Virus record (IMG/VR): IMGVR_UViG_2935124990_000001
Span: 1-64,000 of that record
Strand: one strand, 5' to 3'
DNA from: a virus
Taxonomy: Duplodnaviria; Caudoviricetes
DNA: 64,000 nucleotides
Below, piece after piece: positions 1 through 56,400 of the stretch. Both the position numbers and the translations under genes were made by a program. The stretch's first letter is position 1. The number at the start of each line of letters is the position of its first letter. The notes beneath the pieces were generated by a model that made no database searches, was not told where the DNA came from, and was given only the letters and a program-made list of their open reading frames with translations.

Positions 1-62
1 ACCGGCTGGCACGTGCCATATGTTGTGCAGACCACCGCCGCCCAGGCCTGCCGGAGGATGTC

Positions 63-1112
63 GTGCCCGCCTACATAGCCCAACCCGTCACCGTGTTCCC
101 CCAGCACCAGATCACCACGGCCGAGATCGCCGACGACATCCGCCACCACCACCCCGACCACCCCAAGCTCGGCGCGATCCTCCGCATGCTCACGAACACC
201 GGGGTGCAGACCCGCTACTTCACCCGCCCCCTCAACGCCCCCACCGTCGCCGGCACCGCCGGGGTCGACACCCGGGCGGCCACCGCGTTCAGCGACGCCC
301 TCGACCTCGCCACCGAAGCAGCCCGCCGTACCCTCACCCTCCACCGCCTGGCCCCGGTCGACGTCGACGCCATCATCACCACCCACTCCACCGGGTGGGC
401 CGTCCCCAACCTCGACATCCACCTCATCAACCGGCTCGGGCTGCGCCCCGACGTGCGGCGCATCGCACTGACCACCCTCGCCTGCGCCGGCGGCACCCAC
501 GCCCTGATTCGCGCCGTCGACATGGTCACCGCCCGGCCCGGCGCCACCGTCCTCGTCGTCGCCGCGGAGACCATCTCCGCCGTGTACAACCACGCCGACG
601 ACGCCGTGGAGCACATGATCTACAAAGCCCTGTTCGGCGACAGCGCCGCCGCCACCATCGTCACCAGCACCCCCCGCGGCCCCGGCCTCCACGTCACCGG
701 CCCCGACGACACGTACGAGCACGTCCTCCCGAACAGCCTCACCCGCTACAACGGCAGGGTCGACGCGACCGGCTTCCACTTCGACAGCACGAAGGCCGCG
801 CTCACCGCAGCCGACGACGTCCTCCCCGACCTCCTCAAGTGGCTCGGCCCCGAGCTCGTCGACTTCGGCGTCATCCACCCCGGGTCCCAGCGCATCATCA
901 ACGACACCGCCCGAGCGTTGGGCCTCGACGCGCACGACACCAGGCACAGCACCGACACCCTCGCCGAGGAGGGCAACCTCGGCGGGCCGTCCGTGCTGCG
1001 CATCCTCGAACGCACCCATGGCGAGCCGCCGGCCGCCGGGTCGCGCGGTGTGATGGTCGCCTACGGGCCCGGGTTCAACACCGCCGCGATCCGCGGCACC
1101 TGGCACGCCTGA
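63..1112 (+). CDS. Type III polyketide synthase (chalcone synthase-like, RppA/Gcs/PhlD-like)
   Basis: Catalytic triad contexts LACAGG (Cys), IHPG (His), EGNLGG (Asn); ALFGDSAAA and C-terminal YGPGF motifs; GGAGG RBS before GTG. Confidence 0.92.
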   Translation: MPAYIAQPVTVFPQHQITTAEIADDIRHHHPDHPKLGAILRMLTNTGVQTRYFTRPLNAPTVAGTAGVDTRAATAFSDALDLATEAARRTLTLHRLAPVDVDAIITTHSTGWAVPNLDIHLINRLGLRPDVRRIALTTLACAGGTHALIRAVDMVTARPGATVLVVAAETISAVYNHADDAVEHMIYKALFGDSAAATIVTSTPRGPGLHVTGPDDTYEHVLPNSLTRYNGRVDATGFHFDSTKAALTAADDVLPDLLKWLGPELVDFGVIHPGSQRIINDTARALGLDAHDTRHSTDTLAEEGNLGGPSVLRILERTHGEPPAAGSRGVMVAYGPGFNTAAIRGTWHA

Positions 1113-1168: not shown

Positions 1169-1462
1169 ATGGCGCAAGACCTGATCACCATTACCATCCC
1201 CGCGGCGGGTAAGCCCGACTGCCCCGACTGGGAAGGCGGGCGGAAGGTCACCGTCACCCCGAGGACCTTGACCCTGCACTACCGCCCTGGCCACCCCGAT
1301 GCCATACGGGCAGAGGTCACCGGCCCGTGGAAGCCAAGCCGTCCGGGCATCCTCTATGACCGGCCCGGTGACATGACGGTCTTCTACGACGAAGACGCCC
1401 CCGGCCAATGGCCCACCTGGATCCGCGACCTTGCAGCGCAGTTCCGGCCTGCTGCAACCTGA
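1169..1462 (+). CDS. Hypothetical protein (97 aa)
   Basis: Protein-like C-terminal part of ORF 20..1462, starting MAQDLITITIP. Confidence 0.55.
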   Translation: MAQDLITITIPAAGKPDCPDWEGGRKVTVTPRTLTLHYRPGHPDAIRAEVTGPWKPSRPGILYDRPGDMTVFYDEDAPGQWPTWIRDLAAQFRPAAT

Positions 1463-1538: not shown

Positions 1539-1988
1539 ATGAGCCCTTCCCCTCGCTCCAGCGAGTCCAACCTCGTCGCCCACGCCCGCCACGAACTCCG
1601 CGTCCTCGGCGAAGACCCCGACACCATCCGCGGCCTCTGCAAGGTCGTCCAAGCGTTCGCCGACATGGGGCACAGCGGAGGCAGTGCACCCCACGCCATC
1701 GCCTACCTGGAGCGCCTCCTGCGATTCCAGCCCCTTACCGACCTCACCGACGACCCCGCCGAGTGGATCGACCGGTACGCCGAAGGCATGACCTCGACCC
1801 CTCTCTGGCAGTCCAACCGCAACAGCGAGGCGTTCTCCACCGATGGCGGGAAGACTTACTACCTCCTGTCCGAGCAGCAGGCCGCCGGGGACATCGCCAC
1901 CACCCCGCTCCACCGCTCTACCGAGCTTCCGCGAGCAGAGATGACCATCACCACCTGGCCTGATGAGGCCGCGGTGAAGGAATCATGA
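1539..1988 (+). CDS. Conserved phage hypothetical protein
   Basis: GHSGGSA...PLTDLTDDPAEW motif typical of phage proteins; GGAGG RBS; ATGA overlap with next gene. Confidence 0.75.
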   Translation: MSPSPRSSESNLVAHARHELRVLGEDPDTIRGLCKVVQAFADMGHSGGSAPHAIAYLERLLRFQPLTDLTDDPAEWIDRYAEGMTSTPLWQSNRNSEAFSTDGGKTYYLLSEQQAAGDIATTPLHRSTELPRAEMTITTWPDEAAVKES

Positions 1989-2674
1989 GCGTCGCCCCGG
2001 AACCTGACCAGTCGGGCCTGAACGACTGGCACAAGGCAGGCTGCTCCCGAACCGGCGCCAACCAGCACACCCTCCAGTGGGGGCGCTGCGCCCACGCCAA
2101 ATCACCCACTGAGGAATCCTTCATCGTCGCCAGAACCGCCCTCGCGACCCCAGAGTCTTGGCCCTACATCTGCGGCACCCCGCGCCACACCAAGCTCCTG
2201 GACTGGCTGCGCGCACACGGCATTGAGCCCAGCTTCGTCTCCTCCGACGATCCCGTCGGCCTCGCGACCGGATCTGACGGCACCCGCCTCATCGAGTACA
2301 CGCAGTACCTCGTCACTGCGGAAGGACACAAATACCTGGACCCGAAGAACCTCACGGTCGCCGCCAAGGAAACCCGCCGCACACCCGTGAAGACCGACCC
2401 CCCGCGGCCGAAGCGCGCCGACATCACCACCCTCGCGCTCCTCCAAGCAATCCACGACCACGCCACACGCCCCGTCCCGCCCGGGAAGCACCGGTGGGAG
2501 ATCCCGGGCGCCTGGTGGACGCTGTGCACGGTTTACCCGGAGAAGGTCGTCACCGCCGCCTACGTCCGGGAGGACGACCGCAGGCACCTGGAGTGCGGTG
2601 TCAGCCTCCGTACGAGCTGGCTCACCGACGAAGGGCGGGCCCGCCTTGTCGAACTGCGAGGCGCCCCGACCTGA
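1985..2674 (+). CDS. Hypothetical protein
   Basis: Translationally coupled to upstream gene; normal amino-acid composition. Confidence 0.7.
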   Translation: MSVAPEPDQSGLNDWHKAGCSRTGANQHTLQWGRCAHAKSPTEESFIVARTALATPESWPYICGTPRHTKLLDWLRAHGIEPSFVSSDDPVGLATGSDGTRLIEYTQYLVTAEGHKYLDPKNLTVAAKETRRTPVKTDPPRPKRADITTLALLQAIHDHATRPVPPGKHRWEIPGAWWTLCTVYPEKVVTAAYVREDDRRHLECGVSLRTSWLTDEGRARLVELRGAPT

Positions 2675-2689: not shown

Positions 2690-3460
2690 CTACGGTGCGA
2701 CGCGCCCGTTGGTGTTGAACGCGGCGTGCGTGAGCGGCATCAGCCCCGCCCAGTGCGCCTCCATCAGCTCCCCCGCCATCTCAATCTCGCGCTGAGGAAA
2801 GGACGGGACCTTGGCGTCGGGGTGGGTGGTGCGGAGCCCCAGGAAGTGCATCAGCGACCTGGCGTTGCACGTCGCGTAGACCGACGAGTACAGGCCGACC
2901 GGGAGAACCGATCGGGCCACCTCCCGGGCCACACCCGCCGCCAGCATCCCCTGGTACGCCTCGTACGCCTGCCTGTACGACGCCTTCATCGCCGTCCGGG
3001 TCAAGTAGTGCTGCTCCGCCGAGCCCTCCACGAACCGGTACTGGCCGGGCCGGCCCTCCTGGACGAGCTGCCGGTCGTACCCCGGGATGTAGAACACAGG
3101 CTCCAGCTCCCGGTACCTCCCCGACTCCTCGTTGTACGACCAGCCGGCCCGGTGCCGCATGAACTCGCGGAACACGAAGATCGGGGCGCTGATGAAGAAC
3201 GTCATCGACGTGTGTTCCCAAGGTGATCCATGCCTGTCCCGCATCAGGTAGTTGATCAGCCCCCGGTCCCGGGCCGTCTGCGGGTGCTCCACCGCGGCGT
3301 GCTCCAGGTCGACCATGGCACGGGCCGGAAAGCTGCGCTCGCCCAGGGTGGACACCCGGGCCGCGAACAGCACGTCCGCATCGGACGCGGACGCCTTCAC
3401 CAGCTCCACGGTGACGTCGTCACGGAACTTCGGCTGGGCGGGCATAGGGGTGTCGGTCAC
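2690..3460 (-). CDS. thyX: FAD-dependent thymidylate synthase
   Basis: HGSPWEH, REFMRHRAGWSYNEESGRY (RHRX7S motif), AREVARSVLP, NARSLMHFLGLR, QREI. Confidence 0.95.
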   Translation of the reverse strand: MTDTPMPAQPKFRDDVTVELVKASASDADVLFAARVSTLGERSFPARAMVDLEHAAVEHPQTARDRGLINYLMRDRHGSPWEHTSMTFFISAPIFVFREFMRHRAGWSYNEESGRYRELEPVFYIPGYDRQLVQEGRPGQYRFVEGSAEQHYLTRTAMKASYRQAYEAYQGMLAAGVAREVARSVLPVGLYSSVYATCNARSLMHFLGLRTTHPDAKVPSFPQREIEMAGELMEAHWAGLMPLTHAAFNTNGRVAP

Positions 3461-6955: not shown

Positions 6956-7624
6956 TCACCGTACGCGGCGCGGGCCCGGCACGTAAGGCAACAACACCCT
7001 GTCCACCCGCGCCACCACAGCGGCCGCCCGGGCCGGGTCGTGGGCTTTCGGGGCGGCGGCCAGGGTCGGTACGAGACGGGCCGGGCCGAGGACGTGCACC
7101 GCCCCGCCCCAGTCCGGTGCGGACGCTTCCAACCGGCCGCCGGCGATCGGGGAACCGTGGACAACGAGGAGCGGCCACACCACCACCCCCGGCAGATCCA
7201 GGGTGCGGGCGACACGGGCCGCATACCGGGCAACAGCATCAACCTGGGCCTGCCGGTCGTCCGCCCCGCAGTGCACCCGCCCGCCGACCAGCGTGGTGGT
7301 GCGCCCGCGGTGCCAGTGCTTCGAGTCCAGCACCACGACCGCCGTCCCGCACGGGCTGATCAGGAGGTGGTCGAGGTTGGCCCGGGACCCGGGCATCCGA
7401 AGGTCGTGCCGTATCGCCCACCCCTGCGACTCCAGGGCGGCCACCAGGCGGGCCGTCTCCGCTTCCCCGGCGGCACCGTGCTCCCACCGGGCCGCCACAG
7501 CGTCCGCGCGCCGCACACGGCCCGTACGAACCCCGAGGGCGGCGAGGAGCCGCTGCCACACCCCACGCCGGGCGTTCGCGCGCAGCTCGGCAGCCTGGGC
7601 GGCCGCACTATTCCGGATCGTCAC
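6956..7624 (-). CDS. NERD-domain nuclease
   Basis: GAAGEAET, HDLRMPGSRANLDHLLI, VLDSKHW. Confidence 0.85.
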   Translation of the reverse strand: MTIRNSAAAQAAELRANARRGVWQRLLAALGVRTGRVRRADAVAARWEHGAAGEAETARLVAALESQGWAIRHDLRMPGSRANLDHLLISPCGTAVVVLDSKHWHRGRTTTLVGGRVHCGADDRQAQVDAVARYAARVARTLDLPGVVVWPLLVVHGSPIAGGRLEASAPDWGGAVHVLGPARLVPTLAAAPKAHDPARAAAVVARVDRVLLPYVPGPRRVR

Positions 7625-8028
7625 AGCCCCTCCCCGTGTCGGCGCGCCCGCGCCTCCATGCCACACTGCTCGGCCGTCAGCCCGAAGTACTGCCCCAGCT
7701 CCACCCACACCGCCACCCACGTCCGCGCCTCCCGAATCCGGGCCAGGGTGCGCTGCGCAGCATCCGAAGTCTGACGTTGCAGGTTCAGGGCAGCGACCGT
7801 AGCGACTCGCGCCTGTTCCTTCGCCTCACGGGCCTGGTCGGCCAGCCGCCGGTTCTCGTTCTCCAGGTACACCGCCCACCGGCGGGCCCGGTCCCGCTCG
7901 TCCACGGCGGCCGCCAGGCGCTCCCGCAGTACGTCCAGGTCGTCGTCCTCCAGCCGGCACCCGGGCCCGGTCGACGCGATCAACCGGGCACGCTGCTCCC
8001 GCAACTCAGCGGGCGTCTTCTCGGTCAT
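7621..8028 (-). CDS. Coiled-coil hypothetical protein
   Basis: Coupled overlaps on both sides; heptad-rich. Confidence 0.65.
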   Translation of the reverse strand: MTEKTPAELREQRARLIASTGPGCRLEDDDLDVLRERLAAAVDERDRARRWAVYLENENRRLADQAREAKEQARVATVAALNLQRQTSDAAQRTLARIREARTWVAVWVELGQYFGLTAEQCGMEARARRHGEGL

Positions 8029-19708: not shown

Positions 19709-20331
19709 GGGGCGTCTCCGCTCCTCGGCATTGGGAAGGGCGGCAACACGATCGCAGTCCGTGCGGCCTCCCCTGGCCGGCTGCCGGTGGCCGGTACCGG
19801 GGGACGTCCACTGTGACACTGATCAGGTCACATGGGTAAGCGTTGACCGGGTTTTGATACCTCTGTGATCACTTTGGGGGTAGGGTCCCGGCCATTTGTG
19901 GGGGTGGGGTGGGCATGAAAAAGCCCCCGGGGTGCGGGGGTTGGTGGGGTGGGCATGCCCATCCGGTGATGGGGATTGTAGACCGGGGGTCGCGTCAGGG
20001 GGTAGGGGTCGGCGGGGGTGGGTTGGGTTGGTGCTGGTGGGGTGTGGGGGCAGGGGCGGAGGCGCTGCGATACCCGGGGTGGGGAGTCGCCTCTGCCCCT
20101 GCTGCCGGACGCGTCAGGGCGTGCGGCATTCCCAGCCAAGGGCTTGGGGATGGTCGAGGGAAGGGGCTGGTCACAGGGTCACTCGTACGTGTGACCGATA
20201 AACCCCTGCAAGGTGCCGGAATCCGGCCGAAAACCCAACCGGCAAGCGGGGCACGCCCGTTGGGCTGACGACCGGCCTGTTCGGCCCCCGGGTCTTCGGG
20301 CCACACACAGGCCCCTGGTAATTTGCTCGCC

Positions 20332-21477
20332 ATGACCCATCCCAGCGCCGACGAAGCGCGCGAAAAGTTGCTCGTGAACCTGACGCCGGAGCTCCGCAGG
20401 GACCTGCGGATCCGGGCGGCGGAACACGGGCTCAACATGCAGGACGCGGCAGCCTCCGCACTGTCCCTCTGGTACGAGACCGCCGAGGCCCCCGAGGTGG
20501 AAACCCGCGGTGCGAAGTCGTGGGGTGTGTTCCTCCCTGCCGGCGGCCCGGAGCGGTTCACGCAGGAGTGCGAGTGCCGCGGCCTCACGAAAGTGCAGGG
20601 CATGGCGCAGGCCATCACCTTGTGGCTGGCCGCTCACCCCTCCCCCGACGAGCGTCTCGTTGCGCAGCCGACGAAGCGGATCCTGGTGGGCAACCAGAAA
20701 GGCGGCGTCGGCAAGACGTTCGTCGCGTCCGGGCTGGCCCAGGCGATGGCGGAGATGGGGCTGCGGGTTCTCCTCGTCGACTACGACCCGCAGGGACACC
20801 TGACGAGCCGCATGCAGATCGACGGCCTGCCCGAGGGCGGCGAGAGCCTGCTGACGCACATGCTGGGTGAGGCGACGAAGCACCTGGCCCGGTCCCTGGT
20901 CGCCCTGCCGCACGAGCGGTTCGGCGGTCGGCTCCACGTTCTGCCCGCGAGCAAGGATGCGTTCCTCATGGACGCCAAGCTGGCCCTGCTCCAGGTCGGC
21001 CGGGACACCTGCCTGGCCCGGGCGCTGGCGCCACTCGAGGACTCCTACGACGTGATCGTGCTGGACGGGCCTCCGAACCTGGGGCTGGCCATAGACCTCG
21101 CAATCAACTACGTGCAGCGCCGGCCGGGTGAGCTCATCGACCACTCAGGCCTGCTGATCCCGGTGTGGTCGGACCGGTCGTCGTTCGACGCGTACGAGAT
21201 GCTCCACTCGCAGATCGCCACGCACTCGAAGATGACGGGGGCGGTGGTCGACGAGCTGGGGTTCGTCGTGAACGCCTACGACGCGCGGAAGGGTGTCGGC
21301 ACCCGGAGCTTCTACGAGGGATGGAACCAGCTGACGGCGCCGGGTGTGCTGGGCACGCTGAAGGACTCGATCGAGGGCCGTGAAGCGTCGGACTACCAGA
21401 TCCCGTTGCTGGAGCATGCTCCGGACTCTCCGCAGGCGAACGTGATGCGGGCTCTGGCGAAGGAGTTGGCAGCGTGA
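20332..21477 (+). CDS. parA: ParA partition ATPase with N-terminal tandem RHH-like extension
   Basis: NQKGGVGKT deviant Walker A, VDYDPQG, DVIVLDGPPNLG. Confidence 0.93.
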   Translation: MTHPSADEAREKLLVNLTPELRRDLRIRAAEHGLNMQDAAASALSLWYETAEAPEVETRGAKSWGVFLPAGGPERFTQECECRGLTKVQGMAQAITLWLAAHPSPDERLVAQPTKRILVGNQKGGVGKTFVASGLAQAMAEMGLRVLLVDYDPQGHLTSRMQIDGLPEGGESLLTHMLGEATKHLARSLVALPHERFGGRLHVLPASKDAFLMDAKLALLQVGRDTCLARALAPLEDSYDVIVLDGPPNLGLAIDLAINYVQRRPGELIDHSGLLIPVWSDRSSFDAYEMLHSQIATHSKMTGAVVDELGFVVNAYDARKGVGTRSFYEGWNQLTAPGVLGTLKDSIEGREASDYQIPLLEHAPDSPQANVMRALAKELAA

Positions 21478-30206: not shown

Positions 30207-30989
30207 TCAAGCAGCAGCGAACAGGGCGGACGCCGGAGCCGGCGTTGCGGAGAGCGCATCGTGCAGAACCCTTGCCAGCCGTGGGGGGCAGGCGTTCCCG
30301 ATCTGCTGGGCAACGTCCTTGCCCGACCACGGGTAGTCCGCAGGGAACGACTGCAACAACCCGGCCTCCGCATGGGAGAACCGCGGCAACTCCGCACCGC
30401 CCGGACCGACGACCCGGGACCGGGACACCTTGCCCGTGACCGTTGCTGCCGGCTCGAAGCTCGTACGCCGGCCACGGTTCTTCGGGTCGCCGCCAGTGCC
30501 GTAGTTCGAGATCACCTCGAAGGGTCCGGGCCGGTCCAGCGCCTCGCCCATCGACACCCACGGCAACAACCCCGGATCACCTGCCGAGCGGGCCACACCC
30601 TTCCGGTACGGGCGGCGTGTTGGCGCTGGCAACTCAACGGGACCGTCGAGACGGGCCAGGAGCACCGACCGGCGCCGCGTCTGCGGCACCCCGTACTGCT
30701 CCGTCCGCAACACCCCGGTAGCCACGTGATACCCCTCCGCAGTCAACAGCACCGCGTACTCGTCCCACACCTGCTGCACCTGCTGCACCTGCTCCAGCAG
30801 GATCGTCTCGTACGGGCGGCCCATGTCCACCGCGGTCAGCGCCCACCGCAACGGCTCCAACACCAACCCGGTTCGGTCGTCGTCGAAGACGTGCGACACC
30901 TTGCGGCGGGCCGCCATGTCCCGTGCAGCCACCAGGATCCCGTCCAGGGCAGCCCGGCCGGAGCCGGCGAAGAGGTCCACAGAGGTCAT
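30207..30989 (-). pseudogene. C5 cytosine DNA methyltransferase with in-frame deletion of motifs II-IV
   Basis: DLFAG joined directly to SGRAALD; has EQV, YGVPQTRRR, LQSFPADY, QQIGNAC but no PCQ catalytic motif. Confidence 0.75.
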
Positions 30990-31987
30990 CAGGCGGCGCT
31001 CCTCTCGCGGGTGTCGGCGTGCCCGTTCCGCTCGGCCTGCCGCGCCTGCTCCTTCAGCTCCTGGATGCGGGCGGTCACCATGTCGCCGAACTGGACGACC
31101 GTGCCGCTGACCGGGCCGTCGACCTGGCGGAGCAGCTGGTTACGGCGGCTGGCCTCGGCCATGACCTTCGTGAGCTCCGTGACGTCGTTCCACCCGCGCT
31201 GCATCTGGCCGATCAGGTTGTCGATCGGGTCCGGGCCGGCGCCGTGCTCGGCAGCCACCTGCGCGGCCGCCGCCGGGGCCTCCTGCGCCTGGCGCTCCTC
31301 GCGGGCCGCCAACTCGTCCTTGAGGTGCCGACCGCGGGACACAATCAGCTCCCCGAGCGTCGTCTCCCCATCCGGGCCCTGCACCGCCGAGCCCAGAAGG
31401 CCGTCACCCTTCGCCTCCGCGTGCATCGCGGTTAGCGCCGTCACGTTGTTCCACACCGCGGGCTTCCGCAGCCGCTCCATGTAGACGTCGGCCGGCGACC
31501 GCTGCCCCACCGGGTGGTCCCGGTCCCCGTCGTCCAGCGACCCGGCATCCACCGGGATCATGAACGTCTGCATCAGGGCGTACTTCAGCGCCGCGGACAT
31601 TGCTTTGTTCGACGCCTTGTCCGCCGTGTCGGATGCCTCGCCGAGCGTGCTGGTGGTGACCTTGTCGCCGGCCGGGCCGTGGAAGTGGAACGCGACCCGC
31701 ATGTGGACGGCGTTCATCTTCCCGCGGACGGAGGTCTGGAAGTCGAGGATCTCCGTCATCATGAACACGCCGTGGTCGCGGAGCGGCTGGGCGAGGGCGC
31801 CGATGAAGTCGTCGACACCACGGAACTTGTAGCCCTGGTGCTTGTTCTCTCCGTTCTTGCCGACGTCTCGGACGTCGCGCATGACTAGGGCCATCAGCTC
31901 GTAGATGGTGGGAACAGCCTGGTTTTGGGTGTGCGAGGTGGGGCCCTCCGCCGTGACGCTGGCGGGGGCCTCGGTGGCCGTGGCCAT
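30989..31987 (-). CDS. erf: ERF-family single-strand annealing protein
   Basis: VGKNGENKHQGYKFRGVDD..GEASDTADKASNKAMSAALKYAL..DDGD. Confidence 0.88.
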   Translation of the reverse strand: MATATEAPASVTAEGPTSHTQNQAVPTIYELMALVMRDVRDVGKNGENKHQGYKFRGVDDFIGALAQPLRDHGVFMMTEILDFQTSVRGKMNAVHMRVAFHFHGPAGDKVTTSTLGEASDTADKASNKAMSAALKYALMQTFMIPVDAGSLDDGDRDHPVGQRSPADVYMERLRKPAVWNNVTALTAMHAEAKGDGLLGSAVQGPDGETTLGELIVSRGRHLKDELAAREERQAQEAPAAAAQVAAEHGAGPDPIDNLIGQMQRGWNDVTELTKVMAEASRRNQLLRQVDGPVSGTVVQFGDMVTARIQELKEQARQAERNGHADTRERSAA

Positions 31988-42650: not shown

Positions 42651-44822
42651 CTACAACTGAGTGATCACCAGGTTCCGCCAGAACGGTCGCGTCGCCAGGT
42701 CCGTAATCGACCCGTTCGACAGCCCGGCGTAGCCGCCCCGGTAGGTCGTGTCCGCAATGGCCCCTGTGGTCCAGCCAGTACTGTCCGTACGGCGCAGCTC
42801 GACCGTCGTCGGGGTGACGTTGATCTGGAACGACATAGGGCTGTCCGCAACCGGCGCCGTGGTGGCGATGGTGCTGCCGACCTGCGTTCCTGCCGTAACC
42901 CCAGCGGTGTGCCGGTACAACTGCATGTCCCCCGACGCGCGCATCACCACGTGGTAGCCCCCGGTGGTGTTCGCCGTACCGAACCGGTACGGGTCGTCGG
43001 CCGTCTTCCCGAAGTAGAACCCGCCGTGAACCGTGGCCCCTGGCAGGACCTTGTACTTCATGTCGAACACGATCCGGTAGCCGGCCGCGCTGCCCTGGAT
43101 CGGCGAGTAGGTGCCGAGCCCGTAGGACTGGTTCGGCAGGGCGTTGATGCTGACCCAGCCGGCGTCCGCTCCTTCGCCGAAGACAAGGGCGTAGGCGGTG
43201 TCGTAGTCCAGGGTGGGCGTGCCACCGGACTCCTTCACGGCGAGCCCCCACCGGCTGAACGTGCGCTGCGGCAGGTTCGTGGACACGTACCGGGGGTCGG
43301 ACGACATCATGCCGACCACACCCAGCCCGGTCAGCCGGGCCACCTGCGACCTGCGGTAGACGGGCCAGGCGAAGACCGGCTTACCGCGGGCGACAACTTC
43401 ACTGATGCGCTGGTCGGTGAAGGTGGTGGCGACGCCCCAGTAGTCGACGTTGGTGTCCTTGCCGTCCATGGTGGCGTTGGTGGTGCCGGGGTCGAGGTAC
43501 ACCCACGTGCGGTAGCCGCGTGTCTTCGCCCACGGCAGGGACAGCGTCCCGATGTGAGCTTTCCAGATCACCGACCTGGGGGCGTGCGGGTAGTACGTGT
43601 CGAGCAACGTTTGGGTCGGCACGACGGCGTCGTTGCCCTTCGGCTCCAGCAGAATCGGGATGCGACCGAGGAACTCGTCGAGGACCTGCCGCAGGGGCAC
43701 CATCCGCTGGTCGGTCCACCCGGGGCCGAGCAGCGTCCGCCCGTTCGTGAGGACGGCCTGCCCGACCTCCTCAGTTGTGTACGTGTTCAGGCTTCCGGTC
43801 TGGTACGTGGTCCGGTCCAGGGTGAGGTCGTGGAGACACCACAATTCACCGCTGGCGTCCACGTTCACGGACACCTCAAGGGCGAAGCCCATGGCCGCGC
43901 ACGCCCGGTAGCCAACCAGGGTGTGCTCGGGCCGGACCATTCCGCCGCCGCGGTGACCGAAGAACCGCGGGGACGACGGGGAAGCGCCAGCCAGGTAGGC
44001 GTCCACGGTCTGAACGGCGCTCGGAAGGTACAGAGCCGCCGCCGAAGCGACCGCGGTGTCACGGGCGGCGTTGGCCTTTGTGGTGGCGTCCGAGGCGGCG
44101 GTCGCGATGGCAGCGGACTGCGCGGCCGACGCCTTGGACGCAGCATCCGACGCGGCGGCGCTCACTGCCGCCGTACGAGCAGCGTCCGCCTTCGCCGTGG
44201 CGTCGGATGCCGCTGCGGTGACAGCAGCCGACTGGGCTGCCGCCGCAGCCCCGGACGGGTCGTACGCCCCGTCCGCGCGCACTACCTCCGCCGCGACCAC
44301 GGTGTCCGTGTACTCCTGGGCCTCCGCCGCACCCGATGGGCCGACCAGCGACGCCAGGTAGTCGGCCTCCGTGCCGGTGTTCCCCGCCTCCAGCCACACC
44401 TCGTACGCCGACAGGCCGTCCGCACCGTCCTGCCCGTCGTCCCCCGGCGGGCCCGGCACGTACACGACGGTGCTGCCCCCGGTCGGGGCGTCCCCCAGAT
44501 CGACCCGCAGGTTCCCCACCCAGTGCGGGCCGCCGGTCTCTGGAACCACGATGTGCGTCATCACCGGAGTGCCGTCGTACGAGCGGCCCTCCATCACCGC
44601 CCACACCGTGTCCCCCGCATCCGCTTGGATCAGGGCGTTCGGGATCAGGTCCGCGGACCAGGTGCCGTCCGTCTGCGGCTTCACCAGGACGGGGCGGACG
44701 ACCTCGGCCTCCTTGCTGCCGGCGTACCCGATCGCCCGGGCGCCGGTGACGTCGACCAGCTCGATCTCGATCCGGGTCTGCGACGGGTTCCCGCCGACCA
44801 GCTTGCCCGTCACCGTGGTCAT
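42651..44822 (-). CDS. Tail fibre-like protein with glycerophosphodiester phosphodiesterase (GDPD) domain
   Basis: Collagen-like GPPGDDGQDGADG-SAYEVW, Ala-rich repeats, GHRGG..PEHT, LHDLTLDRTT, LEPK. Confidence 0.85.
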   Translation of the reverse strand: MTTVTGKLVGGNPSQTRIEIELVDVTGARAIGYAGSKEAEVVRPVLVKPQTDGTWSADLIPNALIQADAGDTVWAVMEGRSYDGTPVMTHIVVPETGGPHWVGNLRVDLGDAPTGGSTVVYVPGPPGDDGQDGADGLSAYEVWLEAGNTGTEADYLASLVGPSGAAEAQEYTDTVVAAEVVRADGAYDPSGAAAAAQSAAVTAAASDATAKADAARTAAVSAAASDAASKASAAQSAAIATAASDATTKANAARDTAVASAAALYLPSAVQTVDAYLAGASPSSPRFFGHRGGGMVRPEHTLVGYRACAAMGFALEVSVNVDASGELWCLHDLTLDRTTYQTGSLNTYTTEEVGQAVLTNGRTLLGPGWTDQRMVPLRQVLDEFLGRIPILLEPKGNDAVVPTQTLLDTYYPHAPRSVIWKAHIGTLSLPWAKTRGYRTWVYLDPGTTNATMDGKDTNVDYWGVATTFTDQRISEVVARGKPVFAWPVYRRSQVARLTGLGVVGMMSSDPRYVSTNLPQRTFSRWGLAVKESGGTPTLDYDTAYALVFGEGADAGWVSINALPNQSYGLGTYSPIQGSAAGYRIVFDMKYKVLPGATVHGGFYFGKTADDPYRFGTANTTGGYHVVMRASGDMQLYRHTAGVTAGTQVGSTIATTAPVADSPMSFQINVTPTTVELRRTDSTGWTTGAIADTTYRGGYAGLSNGSITDLATRPFWRNLVITQL

Positions 44823-45166
44823 GAGGTGTCTCCCGTACGACTGTCGGAGGTGGGTGCGTGCCGGGCTGGCTGGTGTTGGGCGGTCCACACCATCCAGGTG
44901 CGCTGCACGATCAGCACCGCGACGAAAGCGAGCAGAGCGGACCGTACGTACCGCAGGACCATGGCCGGGGTGCCGTCGAGGCCGGTGATGGTGACGACGA
45001 CGGTGTAAAGGCCGAGCAGGCCGATCGTCGCGGTGAACAGCATCAGGTGCCATCCCATGGGTGTCCGCCGCCACGGGGCCATCACGTGGTACGTGAGGAC
45101 GAACACCAGGGAGCACAGAAATACGAGGGCGCTGACCGCCAGGTTGAGGATCTGCGCGAAGCTCAC
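44819..45166 (-). CDS. Putative holin (3 TM)
   Basis: Three hydrophobic segments, PWRRTPMG; in the lysis cassette. Confidence 0.7.
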   Translation of the reverse strand: MSFAQILNLAVSALVFLCSLVFVLTYHVMAPWRRTPMGWHLMLFTATIGLLGLYTVVVTITGLDGTPAMVLRYVRSALLAFVAVLIVQRTWMVWTAQHQPARHAPTSDSRTGDTS

Positions 45167-46087: not shown

Positions 46088-47482
46088 TCAGGACTTGGGG
46101 ACGCGGAGCTTTTCCCAGGAGGACTCGCCGGGGATGCCATCGGCGTCCGCTCCGGAGTAGCCGAGCTTCCGCTGGAAGGCGGCGTAGGACGCCTTGTCGG
46201 CGTTGGTCCAGTTCGGACCGGGCCCGGATTTGTACTTGCCGCAGCCCTCGGCGACGAGCCGGCGGCCCATGGCGGTGATGATCGGGCTGTGGCGTCCGCC
46301 GTGGAAGAACGCAGCCCCGGGGAACGGCTCGTACTGCGGGGCGGACGGCTTCGGCGCGGCCGTGCCGGACATCTTGAGCTTCTGGCCGACGGCGATCTGG
46401 TTCGGGTCCTTGAGCCCGTTCAGCTTCGCCAGGGCGTCCGGCGTCGTCTTGTGCGCGGCCGCGATGCTGGTGAGCGTGTCGCCCTGCTTCACGGTGTACG
46501 TGCCCGTCGGCGTACTGCTGCCGGACCCGGTGCCACCGCCGCTGGAGGACGGCTTGCCCGGGACGATGCTGGTGTCGATCGCCCCCGGGTCCCAGTGGTC
46601 GTTGCCGGGAACCTGGGAATGCCCGTAGTGGCCGCCCTTCGACTGCCAGGTGGACCGGTTGCGGCCCGCCTTCGCCGCGGCGGCCGCCGACGCCGGGGGC
46701 TTTCCTGCCGGCCACGTGTCGGGGATCCCGTGGGCGCGCCCGGCGGCGAGGAGCTTCCGGAAGTTCGGCTTCTTCGCGGGGTCGAAGCCCTTGGTCCACG
46801 GGGAGGCGGCCTTGCCGAGGACCTCGACCTGGATGTTGACCTTGCCTTCGCGGTTCGTGCGGCGGGCGCCGTCGTTGCGGAGGGCGCGCCCGGACTTGGT
46901 GAGCGGGCCGAACTGGCCGAGCTCGTCCGTGATGGGGTCGTAGATGACCTGGGGTTCGGCGCCCACGCGGATGAGGTAGGCGGCGATCGATCGAAAGTAG
47001 TTCCCGCCGGCCGGGGATTCGGTGGTGTGCCAGGTGAAGCGGGGCGGGTTGCCGGGGGTGTCCATGGCGCCACCGATGGACTGGCCGCCGAAGCGAACCA
47101 CACCGTCGATGTACGCCGGGCCGTACGTCGGGCCGGACGCCCCGCGCGGCGGAAGAGCGTACGACTCCATGATGGTCTCGGTCAGAGATCTCGTGGCGTC
47201 ATCGGCGTATCCGCCCTTCGGGGCCGGGTCGGGTTCGTAGACGCGGTAGTCGGCGGCGTTCGTCGGTACGTACACGTCGAGGTCGCCGTCGTCCCGCAGC
47301 ACGCAGAACGCCCCGTCGAGCCGCGGGTGGTCCTTCACCCACCGCTCGGAGCCCGGAAGCTCGGCGATCGCACGGACCTCGTCGGCGTGGGCCTGGTCGA
47401 CGGTGCCGAGGTAGGTGGTGGTCGGGGTGAGGGTGCTGTCGCCGGGGTCGATGTGGTCGACCGCGACGTGGAAGGTGTTCAC
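46088..47482 (-). CDS. Endolysin: N-terminal unknown domain, amidase, LysM, peptidoglycan-binding domain
   Basis: WHTTE, IQVEV, HYGHSQVPGNDHWDPG; YTVKQGDTL LysM; ADGIPG. Confidence 0.9.
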   Translation of the reverse strand: MNTFHVAVDHIDPGDSTLTPTTTYLGTVDQAHADEVRAIAELPGSERWVKDHPRLDGAFCVLRDDGDLDVYVPTNAADYRVYEPDPAPKGGYADDATRSLTETIMESYALPPRGASGPTYGPAYIDGVVRFGGQSIGGAMDTPGNPPRFTWHTTESPAGGNYFRSIAAYLIRVGAEPQVIYDPITDELGQFGPLTKSGRALRNDGARRTNREGKVNIQVEVLGKAASPWTKGFDPAKKPNFRKLLAAGRAHGIPDTWPAGKPPASAAAAAKAGRNRSTWQSKGGHYGHSQVPGNDHWDPGAIDTSIVPGKPSSSGGGTGSGSSTPTGTYTVKQGDTLTSIAAAHKTTPDALAKLNGLKDPNQIAVGQKLKMSGTAAPKPSAPQYEPFPGAAFFHGGRHSPIITAMGRRLVAEGCGKYKSGPGPNWTNADKASYAAFQRKLGYSGADADGIPGESSWEKLRVPKS

Positions 47483-47522
47483 AGGAGGGCTCCGTCCAGG
47501 TGGCGAGATGCAGGGAGGTGGC

Positions 47523-47897
47523 TCATGCGGGCGGCAGTTCCAGGAACCCGGTGATCCAGAGATTTCCGGAGGTTGCGACGAGGGTTGCCGGGTCGACCGG
47601 GGTGGTTGAGGTGCCGGAGTGCAGGTAGATCCGGGACAGGGCCAGGCCAACTGATGCCCCGCACCGCAGGCCGCGAGCCGCGTACCACTCGTCCGGCGTG
47701 ACCTGCATCGACGACACCCGCACCGCCCCTACGGGGTGCTTGATCTCCAGGTGATCCGGATGCTGCACCACTGCGGTGACCCCGGACGGGGTGTGTGCAC
47801 TGTCGGCGATCAGTTCCCAGCCCGTGCCCCTGTTCCGGATGGCGCACGAGATCAGCGCCAGGCGGGCGGTTGCCGGGGTCAGGATGTGCGTGGCCAC
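47523..47897 (-). CDS. Hypothetical protein
   Basis: Coupled ORF in the late operon. Confidence 0.65.
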   Translation of the reverse strand: MATHILTPATARLALISCAIRNRGTGWELIADSAHTPSGVTAVVQHPDHLEIKHPVGAVRVSSMQVTPDEWYAARGLRCGASVGLALSRIYLHSGTSTTPVDPATLVATSGNLWITGFLELPPA

Positions 47898-52530: not shown

Positions 52531-53427
52531 TCAGAGGGCGGTGTAGGCGTCGCGCCAGGTCAGGCGGAGCCGGGACGTGTTGGTGTTGTCGAAGCCGGTC
52601 CACCGGAATTCGCTGGGGCCGGGCGGCAGGGAGAACAGGTCGATACGGGAAGCAGGGCTGAGCAGAGTGGAGGCGTTGCCGCCGTTCTCCCGGGTCACGG
52701 TGCGGTAGCCGGGGCGGGTGTCGATCTCCACCCACTGGCCGGCAGTCAGGTTGAGGGTGGGCAGGTCGAGGCGGCGCCCGGACGTGGAGTGAATGACGCT
52801 GACGTTGGCGACCGGGCCGGTGATCCGGATGACGGGCCAGGCGTGCCCGGTCCCGTTGTTGTGGGCCCAGCCCGGCCGGTCGGCGGCCGTGGTCCCGGAC
52901 TGCACGTAGATCGGGGCGACGATCGGGGCGGCGAACCCTCCGCCGGTGAGCCACCCGAGGGGGATCTCGGTGGTGGTCTCCTCGTCGGCGTAGAAACCCG
53001 GGTCGGTGGCGATGAACTCCAGGTCAAGGGGCACGTAGCCGTGAATGACCTGCTTGTACTCGGGCTCCTCCATGCGCAGCCGCCCATTCAGGCGCTTCAC
53101 AGGCCGACCCGGGCGCTTCAGGCGGAAGGGCATGGTGACGCCGCCGGCGAGCCGGACCGCAGGGTCGTCTGCGGCTGCCTGGAGGGCGGCCACCACGTCG
53201 TGGCAGGCGGCCGGGTCACCGGGGATACGGATTGCAGCGTCGATCTGCACCTGGCGGGCCGCGTAGTAGTCCGGGCCGGCGAACACTCCGTCCATGGACG
53301 GCTGGTCGACGTCGGCGTCGCGGACCGGCGGACGGCCGAGGCCGGTGGTCTCGATGACCTGGATGGGTGTTCCGGCGCCCATGAGGACGCCGCCGAGTTC
53401 GTACTGCCAGTCCTCAAGCGGTGGCAC
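52531..53427 (-). CDS. Distal tail protein (Dit-like)
   Basis: Follows tape measure; FIATDP, WPVIRITGP, LTWRDAY. Confidence 0.8.
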   Translation of the reverse strand: MPPLEDWQYELGGVLMGAGTPIQVIETTGLGRPPVRDADVDQPSMDGVFAGPDYYAARQVQIDAAIRIPGDPAACHDVVAALQAAADDPAVRLAGGVTMPFRLKRPGRPVKRLNGRLRMEEPEYKQVIHGYVPLDLEFIATDPGFYADEETTTEIPLGWLTGGGFAAPIVAPIYVQSGTTAADRPGWAHNNGTGHAWPVIRITGPVANVSVIHSTSGRRLDLPTLNLTAGQWVEIDTRPGYRTVTRENGGNASTLLSPASRIDLFSLPPGPSEFRWTGFDNTNTSRLRLTWRDAYTAL

Positions 53428-56400
53428 GGGCGTTCACCCCTCCCCTGCGAGCCCGGCGGACCTGGCGCCCGACCTGGGAAGCGATGTCCGATGCCGTTGC
53501 CCCGGTGCGGACGGTACTGACGGTGACGTTGGTGTCGCCGCCCTCGCGGACGATGACGAGGGGGCGGCTGCCGGAGACGTCCGTGAGGCCGACCCCGAAG
53601 CGCGCGGCGACGTCGCGGAGGACGTTCGTGGCGGGGCCCCGCTTGTTCGCACCGAGGGGGATGTACGCCTCGCCGCCGCTGGCAGGCTCGGCGAACGTCA
53701 CGGCGCCGCCGCGGGTGGAGTAGATGCCCTCCCGGATCCCGCCGTTCTCGTAAGACAACCCCTTGTTCGCCCGGGCGAGGTCGGCGATGAACTTCGACGC
53801 CCTCGAGCCGAGGGAAGACTTGATCTGCGACTGGGCCTTGGTGGCGGTGGCGATGATGACGTCCTCGCCAAGCCCGGTGGTGTCAGCGACGTTGTGGATG
53901 CCGGTCTTGTTCGTCTTGATCGCCGCGATGATGGCAATGAGCTGGTCGACCTCGTCGTTCGTGAGGGCGGTGTTCGCCTTCTTCACTGCGGTGTTCGCAC
54001 TGCCGGCCCTCTTGTTGTCCTTCACCGCGGCGGCGGCGAGCTGCTGTGCGGCGGTGTCGCCCTGGGCGGCGAGCTGTTTGGCGAGGTCCCCGTACCCGCG
54101 GGCCGCCAAAGTGGCAAGGTTCTTCGTGAACGCACTGTCGGCGCCGGTGGCCTTGTCGAGTTGCCGGGTGTAGTCCGTCAGCGACGCCTTCGCCGTTGCG
54201 GACAGGTTCCTGAGCGCGGCCGCCATCTCGTTGATGTACTTCGTCGACCCGTTCGCCATCTTCTTCGCGAGGGCCACACCGTCCTTGCCCATCGCAGCCA
54301 GGGCGTCAGCAACGTCACCACCGACCCGGTCGGCGACCTTCTCCAGGTCCGCGTTCCAGACCCGGGTGGCCTTGCTGTTGGCCTTGAGCTGCTTTTCGAC
54401 CGCAGCCAGGGAGAAGTACTCGACGTCCTTATTGGTGACCTTCCCCTTCTTGCCCTTGACCTTGACCTTCTTGGTCTTGTGCCCGGCCTGCCCGGCGTCG
54501 GTCGGCGAGTACAGGGAGCCGCTGTTCGGGTCGTACCGCCAGTCGGTGACGTTGCCCTCGGCGTTCCACTGGATCGTGTTGGGATCGCCGCCGAGGCGCC
54601 GGACGATCTCCTCGGTGATGGCACGGGAGCGGGGGCGTTTCGACGGGGCGAACGGGACGTACCCCTCCCCCATCGTCTCGGGCTCGGCCCACACCCGCAT
54701 GGCGCCGGCGGGGGCGATCTGCGCGATGTGGTTCTCGGACCCGGCGGCGAAGTGCTGGACGGCTCGGCCTCGGATCCCGCCGTTGGCGTAGGACGCGGCA
54801 ACGATGCCGCCGTCGGCGTAGTGGCCGGCCTTTCCAGGCCGCTTGGCTTCCCCGGTGTTGATGACGACGTGCCGGGTGGTGACGGTGGCGGTGCGGCCGT
54901 CGAGGTCAGCAAGGCGGGCGGCGACGTTACCGATGCCGCTGATGGCAGCACCTGTTGCCGCGGTGACGGTGACCTTGCCGTTCGGGAGGCGCTTGACCTT
55001 GTACCCGAACGCTTTCAGGGCTTCCTCGCCAGCCTTGGACAGCGTCTTGAGGGTGACGGACTTCGCCCCGGGGGACGCCTTGACCTTGGCATTGAAGGCG
55101 TTGAGGTCTGCGGTGGCGTCCTCCGTCCGCATCTTGACCTTGAAGTCTTTGCTGTCCGGGATGTCCAGGAGGGTCTTGGCGAGGGCCTCGGCTTGGGGCC
55201 TGGTGAGTCCCATGGCCTGGCCGGCCTTGATGATGGCCTGTTCGCCGCGCTGGTAGATCCCGTTGACGTACTCCCAGGAGCGGCCCTGTTCCCGGGCGGA
55301 GGCTGCCGCTTCGTCGGTCTTCGCCCCGAGGTCCTGGAGCGCGGTGGCGGCGGCCTGTGCCTTCGGGGAGTTCAGGTCCAGCTCGCCGTTGATCATCCTG
55401 AGTGATCCGGCGTTCTTCTTCGCGGCCTTGTCGGCGGCGTCGATGGCCGCCTCGAAGCCGATCATCCCGCCCAACGCGGCCCGGTTGACGTCGTTCAGCG
55501 CCTGGATCGCGCCGCGGAGTCCGTCCGCGCTGGCCTTCTGCGCGTCGAGCTTCGTCTTCACGTCCAGGGCCTGCTGCCCAAACAGGCCCATCCCGGCGAC
55601 CGCGAGCTCCTGCTCGGCCGCCGCCGCGGCGACAGCTGCCTGGTAGTCGGGGAAGAGAGCGGCGATCTCCTTGGTGGAGTACCCGGCCTTCTTCGCGGCT
55701 GCCTCGATCGTGCTGAAGTCGGCGGCGGCCTGCTTGCCGTACCCGGACTGGACCATGCCCGCCATGGCCTGGTCGAGGCCCTTGAAGTCGTCCTCCAGGG
55801 CGGTGAGCGACTTCTCGCCCTTGGTGAGGTCCTGCCAGAGGTCGTTGGCACCACTGCGCAGGTCATCAAGCGGTTTGATGCCGGAGTTCCCGAACGACTT
55901 GACGTAGTCCTCGTTCTCCTTCGCGGCGTCGCCGAGTTCGCCGATCTTCTTCACGAGGCCGTCGACGTCACCAAAGGTGCTCTTCAGCTCGCCGGTGAAC
56001 TTCCCGGTCTCGGCGAGCCGCTTGAGGCTGGTGGTGAGCCGGTCGATGTCCGGGGGTGCGCCGCGGGCGTTCTCTGCGAGCTTGGCGACGCCGATCGCTG
56101 CGACGGTGAGGACTCCGAGGCCGATCGACGCCTTGGTCATGGCGGTCATGCTGGCGGCGGTGGCCCGCAGGGTGGTGCTGACGCCGGCGGCACGCATGAT
56201 GGCGAAGTAGGCGCCGAGGCGGGCCACTGCGGCAGACCCGGTGACCGCGCCGAACGCGGCGGCGCCAAGGGTGATGAGCTTGAACCCGGCGTAGAGCTGC
56301 AGCAGTGTCGACAGGAAGCTGGTGGGGATCGCGTTGACGAGCTGGGCGAACACGTTGACGGCCGTGAGGACGCTGACGCCGACGTCGGACATGGCGACCA

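Follow-up and report, generated by a model that had tools for sequence, protein, structure and literature searches.

The Streptomyces phage-plasmid pZL12 (phiZL12) reportedly switches between an autonomous plasmid and an infectious virion. In its GenBank entry (GQ919031), pZL12.100 is given as a type III polyketide synthase (T3PKS) 'similar to RppA', in a long form of 447 amino acids (aa), and pZL12.99 as a transcriptional regulator. Homologous synthase genes are found on pSLE1 of S. leeuwenhoekii and on the W9 and W75 plasmids; the T3PKS of pSLE1 is described, in the passages devoted to it, as 59% identical to pZL12-100, with neighbouring genes that suggest no cluster (PMC4487206). In a survey of actinobacterial prophages (Sci Rep 2023), T3PKS clusters are reported, in the sections that deal with them, only from prophages on plasmids (PMC10023795), i.e. 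from the same class as that treated here, and these sections do not deal with regulator pairing, phylogeny or function. In a bioRxiv preprint, pZL12 figures solely as a prophage signature. The present work concerns a synthase gene of this kind at the start of a stretch of 64,000 nucleotides (nt) (the window, i.e. positions 1-64000 of the 91,887-base virus record IMGVR_UViG_2935124990_000001; coordinates preceded by 'contig' are those of the whole record), together with the gene of an MmyB-like regulator directly upstream, with which it forms a conserved two-gene cassette.

Since T3PKS genes of pZL12, pSLE1 and plasmid prophages are in print, the bare finding is already on record for close relatives, and the novelty implied in the original prediction, which was made from the sequence alone, was overestimated: the gene is annotated in pZL12 and, as far as the relevant parts of the two papers go, discussed for pSLE1 (PMC4487206) and surveyed among prophages (PMC10023795). 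What is new is the pairing with the MmyB-like regulator, the retention of the synthase in 26 of 34 related plasmids (among the matches listed), the movement of the cassette between replicons and the finding that the enzyme is distinct from RppA, Gcs and DpgA. In the literature searched, no paper was found that links the MmyB-like family to type III PKS genes, and nothing was found on the function of polyketide or type III PKS genes in Streptomyces phage-plasmids.

The element studied here shares with pZL12/phiZL12 the same gene in the same kind of element, the two synthases being 89.4% identical, with the regulator (pZL12.99) likewise upstream and with the same palindrome and promoter; it differs from pZL12-type relatives by an extra small open reading frame (ORF) after the synthase. 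The closest synthase (95.7% identity) belongs to an 85-kb plasmid of S. californicus, the terminase of which is nevertheless only 56% identical, so that the present element is mosaic.

The regulator-synthase cassette

The ORF at 63-1112 encodes an intact type III PKS. Pfam recognizes Chal_sti_synt_N (82.1 bits, cut-off 27) and, barely above threshold, Chal_sti_synt_C (27.5 bits, cut-off 27), and the G+C content at third codon positions (GC3) is 0.96, typical of Streptomyces coding sequence. The top solved relatives are tetrahydroxynaphthalene (THN) synthase (THNS, 1u0m; 8e-47) and germicidin synthase (Gcs, 3v7i; 6e-44), followed by M. tuberculosis Pks11. The AlphaFold (AF2) model, built on a 60-sequence alignment (predicted local distance difference test, pLDDT, 96.4; predicted template modelling score, pTM, 0.95), matches them with template modelling (TM) scores of 0.93 (32% identity), 0.93 (29% identity) and 0.89, respectively. 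For comparison, 53 synthase copies with their flanks were collected (this element, phiZL12, 10 IMG/VR contigs, 37 genome contigs and 4 divergent plasmids of 88-99 kb), a 38th genome locus, which is a 30%-identical Myxococcales match, being set aside. The frame is open over its full length in 52 of the 53 copies, each encoding 346-350 aa; the remaining copy (L050) is truncated where its contig stops. The triad Cys141/His272/Asn305, assigned from the alignment with 1u0m, is invariant in all 53, and so are Phe191 and the G335-P336-G337-F338 loop, which are among 63 invariant positions of the family that also include Tyr187, Gly231 and Gly307. Phe191 is presumably the gatekeeper Phe of the LFGD motif, and the loop is taken to be the G-P-G loop near the C-terminus. 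Measured against 12 relatives, the ratio of non-synonymous to synonymous substitution (dN/dS) ranges from 0.14 to 0.55; its median over 78 pairs is 0.34, all of them being below 1 and none above 0.55, and the strong GC3 bias probably deflates dS in this estimate. The synthase is thus under purifying selection, with moderate constraint. Pfam, fold model and selection therefore agree with the prediction of an intact synthase with a complete Cys-His-Asn triad, and the ribosome-binding site attributed to it (GGAGGA at 53-58) is also in place: the CCGGAGGATGTCGTG ending is common to this element and its closest relatives, and the position of GGAGGA/GGGAG is retained in the upstream stretches of the relatives listed.

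The first and last 95 bases of the record are identical, which leaves 91,792 unique bases; the replicon is therefore circular, and the upstream context of the synthase is recovered across the junction. There, the element's own regulator and replication-region genes are found, and inspection revealed no att site and no chromosome. That the synthase belongs to the element, which had been held likely but unproven, is thereby settled. The frame of the synthase remains open across the circular junction back to contig 91537, which would give a long form of 455 aa. This form was rejected because it spans the 3' end of the regulator gene, a hairpin with a 15-bp stem and the promoter-like region, because the 52 complete homologues have 346-350 aa, because the regulator and synthase genes of relatives are separated by 76-300 nt (561 nt in one case), and because similarity to THNS begins at residue 4. 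The 447-aa annotation of pZL12.100 is considered over-extended.

As judged from its domains, the protein encoded directly upstream is an MmyB-like regulator, with an N-terminal XRE-type helix-turn-helix (HTH) domain (Pfam HTH_31, PF13560; 33.8 bits, cut-off 27, 4e-8) and a C-terminal MLTR ligand-binding domain (MLTR_LBD, PF17765; 64.5 bits, cut-off 26.3, 1.6e-17); its homologues in the database carry the name of MmyB family regulators. A plain sequence search of the PDB gave no match, and the only strong fold match of the model (pLDDT 88.6) is MltR (Caur_2278, 3pxp; 8.6e-10 over 277 columns), which extends over the full length and, like MmyB, has the same two-domain build, at about 20% identity to the present protein. 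In the relevant sections of the paper on these proteins, MltR is described as having its pocket occupied by myristic acid in the crystal, and MmyB as the activator of the methylenomycin genes, recognising pseudo-palindromic B-boxes and acting, according to the introduction, downstream of furan signals in methylenomycin control (PMC3406030). The same sections mention a TTA codon in mmyB (PMC3406030), whereas the regulator gene studied here has none.

The regulator gene lies upstream of the synthase, on the same strand, in 51 of the 53 loci; contig ends truncate the remaining two, in one of which the C-terminus of the regulator can still be read. A DUF6221 gene is inserted between the two in one plasmid. 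When eight additional upstream HTH proteins were tested, MLTR_LBD was present in all of them (8/8); three of these proteins adjoin synthases that are 49-51% identical, two of the three on linear plasmids of 238 and 939 kb. Pairwise identities of regulators and synthases are correlated (r = 0.84 over 51 loci and 1275 non-independent pairs), and no further neighbourhood gene of this element accompanies the pair across the 53 loci. A conserved two-gene regulator-synthase cassette is thus shown.

Its retention was assessed on plasmid records with a terminase at least 55% identical to that of the element, among the matches listed. There are 34 of them (55.9-95.3% identity, 85-152 kb), and 25 also belong to the 35 plasmid records that match the synthase at E <= 1e-90. 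When the other nine were scanned with Pfam over the whole record, one proved to have a divergent T3PKS and eight to have none, so that 26 of the 34 carry a T3PKS. The MLTR domain was absent from all five synthase-less relatives scanned (5/5). Five more plasmids, of about 88-102 kb, have the synthase and are not among the terminase matches listed, and the database clusters of the synthase are rich in 82-94-kb contigs from S. anulatus, S. globisporus, S. albidoflavus and others.

Genomic homes and phylogeny

The cassette is not confined to phage-plasmids. Two classes of chromosomal context were distinguished. In the first (ChrB; nine loci, 74-77% identical), the pair is found between unrelated genes, such as those for an alpha-lytic protease and a carboxylesterase; in the second (ChrC; 21 loci, L031-L054, 56-68% identical), it is part of a conserved neighbourhood, in the order DUF4032/Kdo-kinase-like gene, the pair, TetR, SDR, the membrane acyltransferase Acyl_transf_3, DUF2470 and a glutamate-synthase-like gene, which could be either a fuller pathway or merely local synteny. 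Both neighbourhoods are free of phage genes. The copies of about 50% identity on the 939-kb plasmid (L073) and the 238-kb linear plasmid (L074) keep the MLTR regulator and have a divergent FabG reductase added, and in one of the two an MBL-fold hydrolase lies between regulator and synthase; the strain with the 939-kb plasmid also has an 88.6-kb pZL12-like plasmid without the cassette. Around the chromosomal cassette of L022, nothing convincing as flanking repeats was seen.

A quick IQ-TREE analysis was made of 89 rows, namely 52 loci (the partial L050 being left out) and 37 representatives of a library of 1.84 billion proteins, with groups set by genomic context before the tree was seen. Fifty of the 52 locus rows group in a single clade (SH-aLRT 97) and two fall just outside it; phage-plasmid rows are both basal and derived. 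ChrB (support 94) is nested in a clade of 22 rows (support 100), the remainder of which are phage-plasmids, and 20 of the 21 ChrC rows fall into two clades beside it. Constraining all 19 phage-plasmid rows to one group lowers the log-likelihood by 346 units (p-AU 1e-34), which disposes of the exclusive phage-plasmid clade contemplated in the original prediction. The tree topology thus indicates a single radiation specific to the family, in the course of which phage-plasmids, large plasmids and chromosomes have repeatedly exchanged the cassette, and ChrB at least looks like a capture from a phage-plasmid.

Promoter regions and surrounding genes

The approximately 130 nt upstream of the regulator gene (contig 90629-90758; 337-466 in L002) show striking conservation, at the level of DNA, in every context, and include a -10 box (TAGGCT/TAGACT) and an AT-rich symmetric element, TTTT-N5-6-AAAA, which is unusual in DNA of 70% G+C. 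The element resembles an operator and is a suggestive candidate for an autoregulatory site. An upstream ORF of 37 codons, overlapping the regulator start (ATGA), was also considered; it starts with ATG and remains open across the conserved region in 24 of 51 loci, 18 of which have a length of exactly 37 codons, and was judged not to be coding because it is broken in close relatives of loci where it is intact. A riboswitch or other known RNA, suggested by the B12-box-like CCCGCCACTG, was rejected by an Rfam scan of six loci, which gave one sub-threshold sul1 match only, located within the L022 synthase gene. A G+C-rich inverted repeat of about 60 nt (CGGTGCCGTG...ACGGCACCG) lies some 400 nt ahead of the regulator in L031-L055, L011, L019, L020 and L058; chromosomal copies and some phage-plasmid copies have it in almost the same form, with proteins that are only about 60-65% identical. 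The repeat has no Rfam match, and may be a terminator or some structured element of unknown type at the left edge of the cassette.

A hairpin with a perfect 15-bp stem and about 200 nt of non-coding sequence separate the regulator stop from the synthase; the hairpin is stable, but the folding of the entire intergenic region is unremarkable (z = -1.3). The TATGTT box, a putative promoter -10 box, has the family form TAnGTT, visible by eye in nearly all the upstream stretches listed. At the -35 position, a CTGATCAGGGGCAAT block is conserved, again by eye, in the phage-plasmid and ChrB clades, and is replaced in the ChrC loci by a good TTCAAC-N17-TAGGTT promoter. The 12-bp palindrome TGGCACGTGCCA, to which the original prediction had drawn attention, does exist at 7-18, and is neither conserved nor beyond chance. 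An exact copy is confined to this element, phiZL12 (L005) and L018; L009 has it with one mismatch, and it is absent elsewhere among the loci listed. It occurs once in the window, where perfect 12-bp palindromes number 25 in all, and at least one match with at most one mismatch is obtained in 25 of 100 shuffles. As a conserved operator it was accordingly rejected. A resemblance between the synthase promoter (CACGTGCC..ATA) and the regulator leader, seen in phiZL12 and L018, was likewise abandoned, being weak and inconsistent across loci.

From its gene content, the element is a phage-plasmid, as had been proposed, and more precisely a circular pZL12-like one of Streptomyces, of 91.8 kb: virion and packaging genes and a ParA-like gene are united on one circular replicon, and its relatives are deposited as plasmids of 85-100 kb. 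The switching between plasmid and virion is a reported property of pZL12 itself. In a search of 50,697 phage records, phiZL12 was the only phage with a close relative of the synthase (two records of the one phage), and one human-faecal phage contig matches at 28%; similarly, 66% of window positions 40000-64000 match phiZL12 at 84.7% identity, and this is again the only phage matched (two records). The annotation of the S. californicus plasmid lists terminase, major capsid, tail genes, amidase, ParA/ParB, an integrase and a DnaB-like helicase; its SSB and ThyX also map onto the record, ThyX with 90% identity, and Pfam gives a weak integrase match in the element. The synthase stands at the end of a plus-strand block concerned with regulation and replication, just ahead of a converging block on the minus strand and away from the virion genes (table 1). 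In seven of the 34 related plasmids among the matches listed (H34, H36, H48, H52, H56, H62 and H65), the terminase match is in two pieces, and the annotation of five of these seven puts HNH or LAGLIDADG homing-endonuclease genes under the pieces or between them.

Downstream of the synthase come a small ORF, a Tad3-family gene, a hypothetical gene and thyX, and Pfam identifies no tailoring-enzyme genes among the neighbours, in keeping with what had been read from the sequence. The small ORF has no tblastn match in related loci and no Pfam, PHROG or PADLOC match; in the closest plasmid, that of S. californicus, the Tad3-like gene starts 78 nt after the synthase, and positions 1169-1462 are either an insertion of unknown nature in this element or no gene. 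The Tad3-family protein is 97% identical to the product of the gene directly after the synthase in the S. californicus plasmid, so that a gene of anti-defence type adjoins the regulator-synthase cassette.

Table 1. Features of the cassette and of the element, in coordinates of the record (1-64000 being the window); virion genes are placed where proteins of the S. californicus plasmid map.
Feature	Position	Strand	Remarks
95-bp end overlap copy	1-95	.	identical to contig 91793-91887
12-bp palindrome TGGCACGTGCCA	7-18	.	promoter spacer, just ahead of TATGTT; lineage-specific
-10-like box TATGTT	19-24	+	about 40 nt before start; family consensus TAnGTT within GTGnCnTAnGTTG
Ribosome-binding site GGAGGA	53-58	+	4 nt ahead of GTG; read from sequence
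T3PKS gene	63-1112	+	GTG start, 349 aa
Small ORF	1169-1462	+	97 aa, between synthase and Tad3-like gene; possibly not a gene
Tad3-family protein	1539-1988	+	149 aa; type I Thoeris inhibitor family; PF25185 3.4e-33, phrog_14697 1e-33
Hypothetical protein	1985-2674		229 aa, downstream of Tad3-family gene
ThyX thymidylate synthase	2690-3460	-	Pfam Thy1 6.4e-43; first gene of converging minus-strand block
NERD nuclease-related protein	6956-7720	-	Pfam
ParA-like ATPase	20323-21477	+	Pfam; followed by a 307-aa protein without family
ERF recombinase	30989-31987	-	Pfam
GDPD-domain protein	42651-45116	-	821 aa, tail region; Pfam
LysM-domain protein	46088-47650	-	Pfam
Tape-measure-sized protein	53417-57946		S. 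californicus plasmid protein match
Major capsid	63957-65000		S. californicus plasmid protein match
Portal-position protein	66785-68641		unnamed in S. californicus plasmid annotation
Terminase	69197-70702		single uninterrupted 510-aa frame
GntR	79664-80407		S. californicus plasmid protein match
AT-rich element TTTT-N5-6-AAAA	contig 90679-90694		regulator promoter region; candidate autoregulatory site
-10 box TAGGCT/TAGACT	contig 90709-90714		regulator promoter region
MmyB-like regulator gene	contig 90759-91595	+	278 aa, outside window, directly upstream of synthase
Hairpin	contig 91616-91657		perfect 15-bp stem
CTGATCAGGGGCAAT block	contig 91778-91792		-35 position of synthase promoter

Product and role of the cassette

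The reading that is favoured, with a probability of roughly 55%, is that the cassette, consisting of a working T3PKS and an MmyB-like regulator, is a ligand-gated, self-contained metabolite unit, carried as accessory cargo by the phage-plasmid; how it is controlled, what class of product it makes and what benefit it brings are what we infer, as follows. The regulator, combining an XRE DNA-binding head with a PAS-like pocket suited to a lipid-like ligand, would take up a small hydrophobic ligand and activate the synthase from its own promoter, which has a weak -35 region, and would probably act also on its own promoter through the conserved AT-rich symmetric element. The synthase would then condense an acyl starter with malonyl units to a small pyrone-, resorcinol- or phloroglucinol-type product, formed without dedicated tailoring enzymes, and this product would benefit either the carrier cell or the element in its plasmid-prophage state.

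Several results weigh against this reading. Among 23 RNA runs, there was none that contained the stretch; a scan for consensus sigma-70 promoters found none in either stretch scanned, a scan for terminators found only one terminator-like site, on the minus strand and within shuffle expectation, and no regulator-binding site common to both cassette promoters could be defined. Eight of the 34 related phage-plasmids have no T3PKS at all, and the cassette is therefore dispensable for the element. The constraint on the synthase, at the dN/dS values given above, is moderate only. Furthermore, SDR, Acyl_transf_3, FabG or MBL-fold hydrolase genes stand beside the pair in some chromosomal relatives, so that the bare two-gene form may rely on enzymes of the host. 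Finally, the product class is a guess, as it depends on the lack of presumed THNS hallmark residues (see below).

A more specific form of the favoured reading would make the cassette a classical lysogenic-conversion cargo, the product altering the envelope, or being itself anti-phage or antimicrobial, and thus providing superinfection exclusion or a competitive edge for the lysogen. Such an effect would accord with the influence of SrsA alkylresorcinols on the tolerance of S. griseus to beta-lactams and with the ability of Streptomyces metabolites to block phages, and also with the position of the pair in an accessory stretch, with the Tad3-family anti-defence gene adjacent and the NERD-domain protein about 6 kb off; the lack of tailoring genes is consistent with simple alkyl-pyrone or resorcinol lipids. 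However, neither the synthase nor the regulator has a PADLOC match or a PHROG family, and the cassette comes without an export or self-resistance gene. Chemical protection in this sense is therefore regarded as unlikely, if conceivable.

The three roles put forward in the original prediction, namely modulation of host development, an envelope change and a lysis-lysogeny signal, are conjectural. The presence of a ligand-binding regulator also keeps a signalling role possible. The synthase would make a diffusible molecule and the MmyB-like protein would be its receptor, so that the element could sense its own density or the state of the host and set the plasmid-versus-lytic decision, or transfer, accordingly, in a non-peptide counterpart of arbitrium or of LuxI/LuxR pairs. 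The strict pairing of regulator and synthase, both of which are missing from the five synthase-less relatives scanned, fits such a circuit, and so do the retention of the T3PKS in 26 of the 34 relatives, the conserved AT-rich symmetric element, as expected under autoregulation, and the place of MmyB downstream of furan signals in methylenomycin control, as outlined in the introduction of the MltR paper (PMC3406030). On the other hand, the same cassette occurs in the ChrB and ChrC settings, and its presence in chromosomal neighbourhoods devoid of phage genes speaks against a role confined to a decision in the life cycle of the phage; it is also carried by linear plasmids of 238-939 kb, so that its function needs no such decision. 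In addition, no operator common to the cassette and any other gene of the element was found, the palindrome occurring once in the window, and the cassette is missing from eight of the 34 relatives. On balance, a circuit of this kind is quite improbable. Still more doubtful is its fullest version, in which regulator and synthase are the receptor-synthase pair for a polyketide autoinducer by which phage-plasmids count themselves or read host physiology for the plasmid-versus-lytic or transfer decision, the chromosomal copies being captured or eavesdropping.

An older proposal for the product must also be considered. If, as the GenBank note on pZL12.100 has it, the enzyme were of the RppA type, it would make 1,3,6,8-tetrahydroxynaphthalene, leading to flaviolin or a melanin-like pigment, and THNS 1u0m is indeed the top match both in sequence and in fold. 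However, identity to THNS is only 32%, Gcs is nearly as good a match (6e-44; TM 0.93), and 54 library representatives of 50%-identity clusters are higher-scoring matches than 1u0m with its 163 bits. Moreover, the residues that we take to be hallmarks of THNS (Cys106, Cys168, Cys171, Cys184 and Tyr224) are replaced, in the 1u0m alignment, by Ser109, Ile171, Val174, Tyr187 and Gly231, of which Tyr187 and Gly231 are invariant in all 53 relatives; a product other than THN is therefore to be expected, and an RppA-type activity appears very unlikely. Nor is the synthase an orthologue of the other reference enzymes, distances to RppA, Gcs and DpgA being judged from PDB and NCBIfam scores, and the tree being one without RppA, Gcs, SrsA and PhlD. 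With Gcs, identity is 29%, the modelled residues number 384 as against 349, and the TM-score normalised to the target is 0.85; in NCBIfam, which gave sub-threshold matches only, the top one is DpgA (NF042429, equivalog), with 102.8 bits against a curated cut-off of 425. RppA/THNS (1u0m) and Gcs (3v7i) of S. coelicolor share with the present enzyme the fold and the triad without being its orthologues, and neither is, to our knowledge, paired with an MmyB-like regulator. No characterised enzyme was found among the ten nearest 50%-identity clusters, which bear generic names only, or among the chromosomal members.

That the cassette was recently taken up from a chromosome, has no role in the element and is perhaps decaying would suit its absence from eight of the 34 relatives, its movement among replicon types and the merely moderate constraint, but is most improbable in view of the 52 of 53 copies with a full-length open frame and the invariant triad in all 53, of the persistence of the cassette in phage-plasmids whose terminases have diverged to 56% and synthases to 48% identity, of the basal as well as derived phage-plasmid copies in the tree, and of a dN/dS below 1 in 78 of 78 pairs.

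Biosynthetic enzymes are very rare in phages, and yet about three quarters of this phage-plasmid family, among the matches listed, keep the synthase, along with a ligand-sensing regulator dedicated to it. The family is thus a tractable case for the role of a virus-borne secondary-metabolite gene, as it offers a cassette of two genes and natural carriers in culture collections, such as the plasmid of S. californicus FDAARGOS_1210 and others from S. anulatus and S. albidoflavus. With regulator and synthase paired, a candidate source of the ligand stands beside its receptor, which also offers a way into the MmyB-like family, so far poorly understood. Should the product be an ordinary pyrone or resorcinol lipid of benefit to the host, the cassette would be a case of routine lysogenic conversion; should regulator and synthase form an autoinducer pair, they would let a temperate actinophage communicate through a small molecule that is not a peptide.

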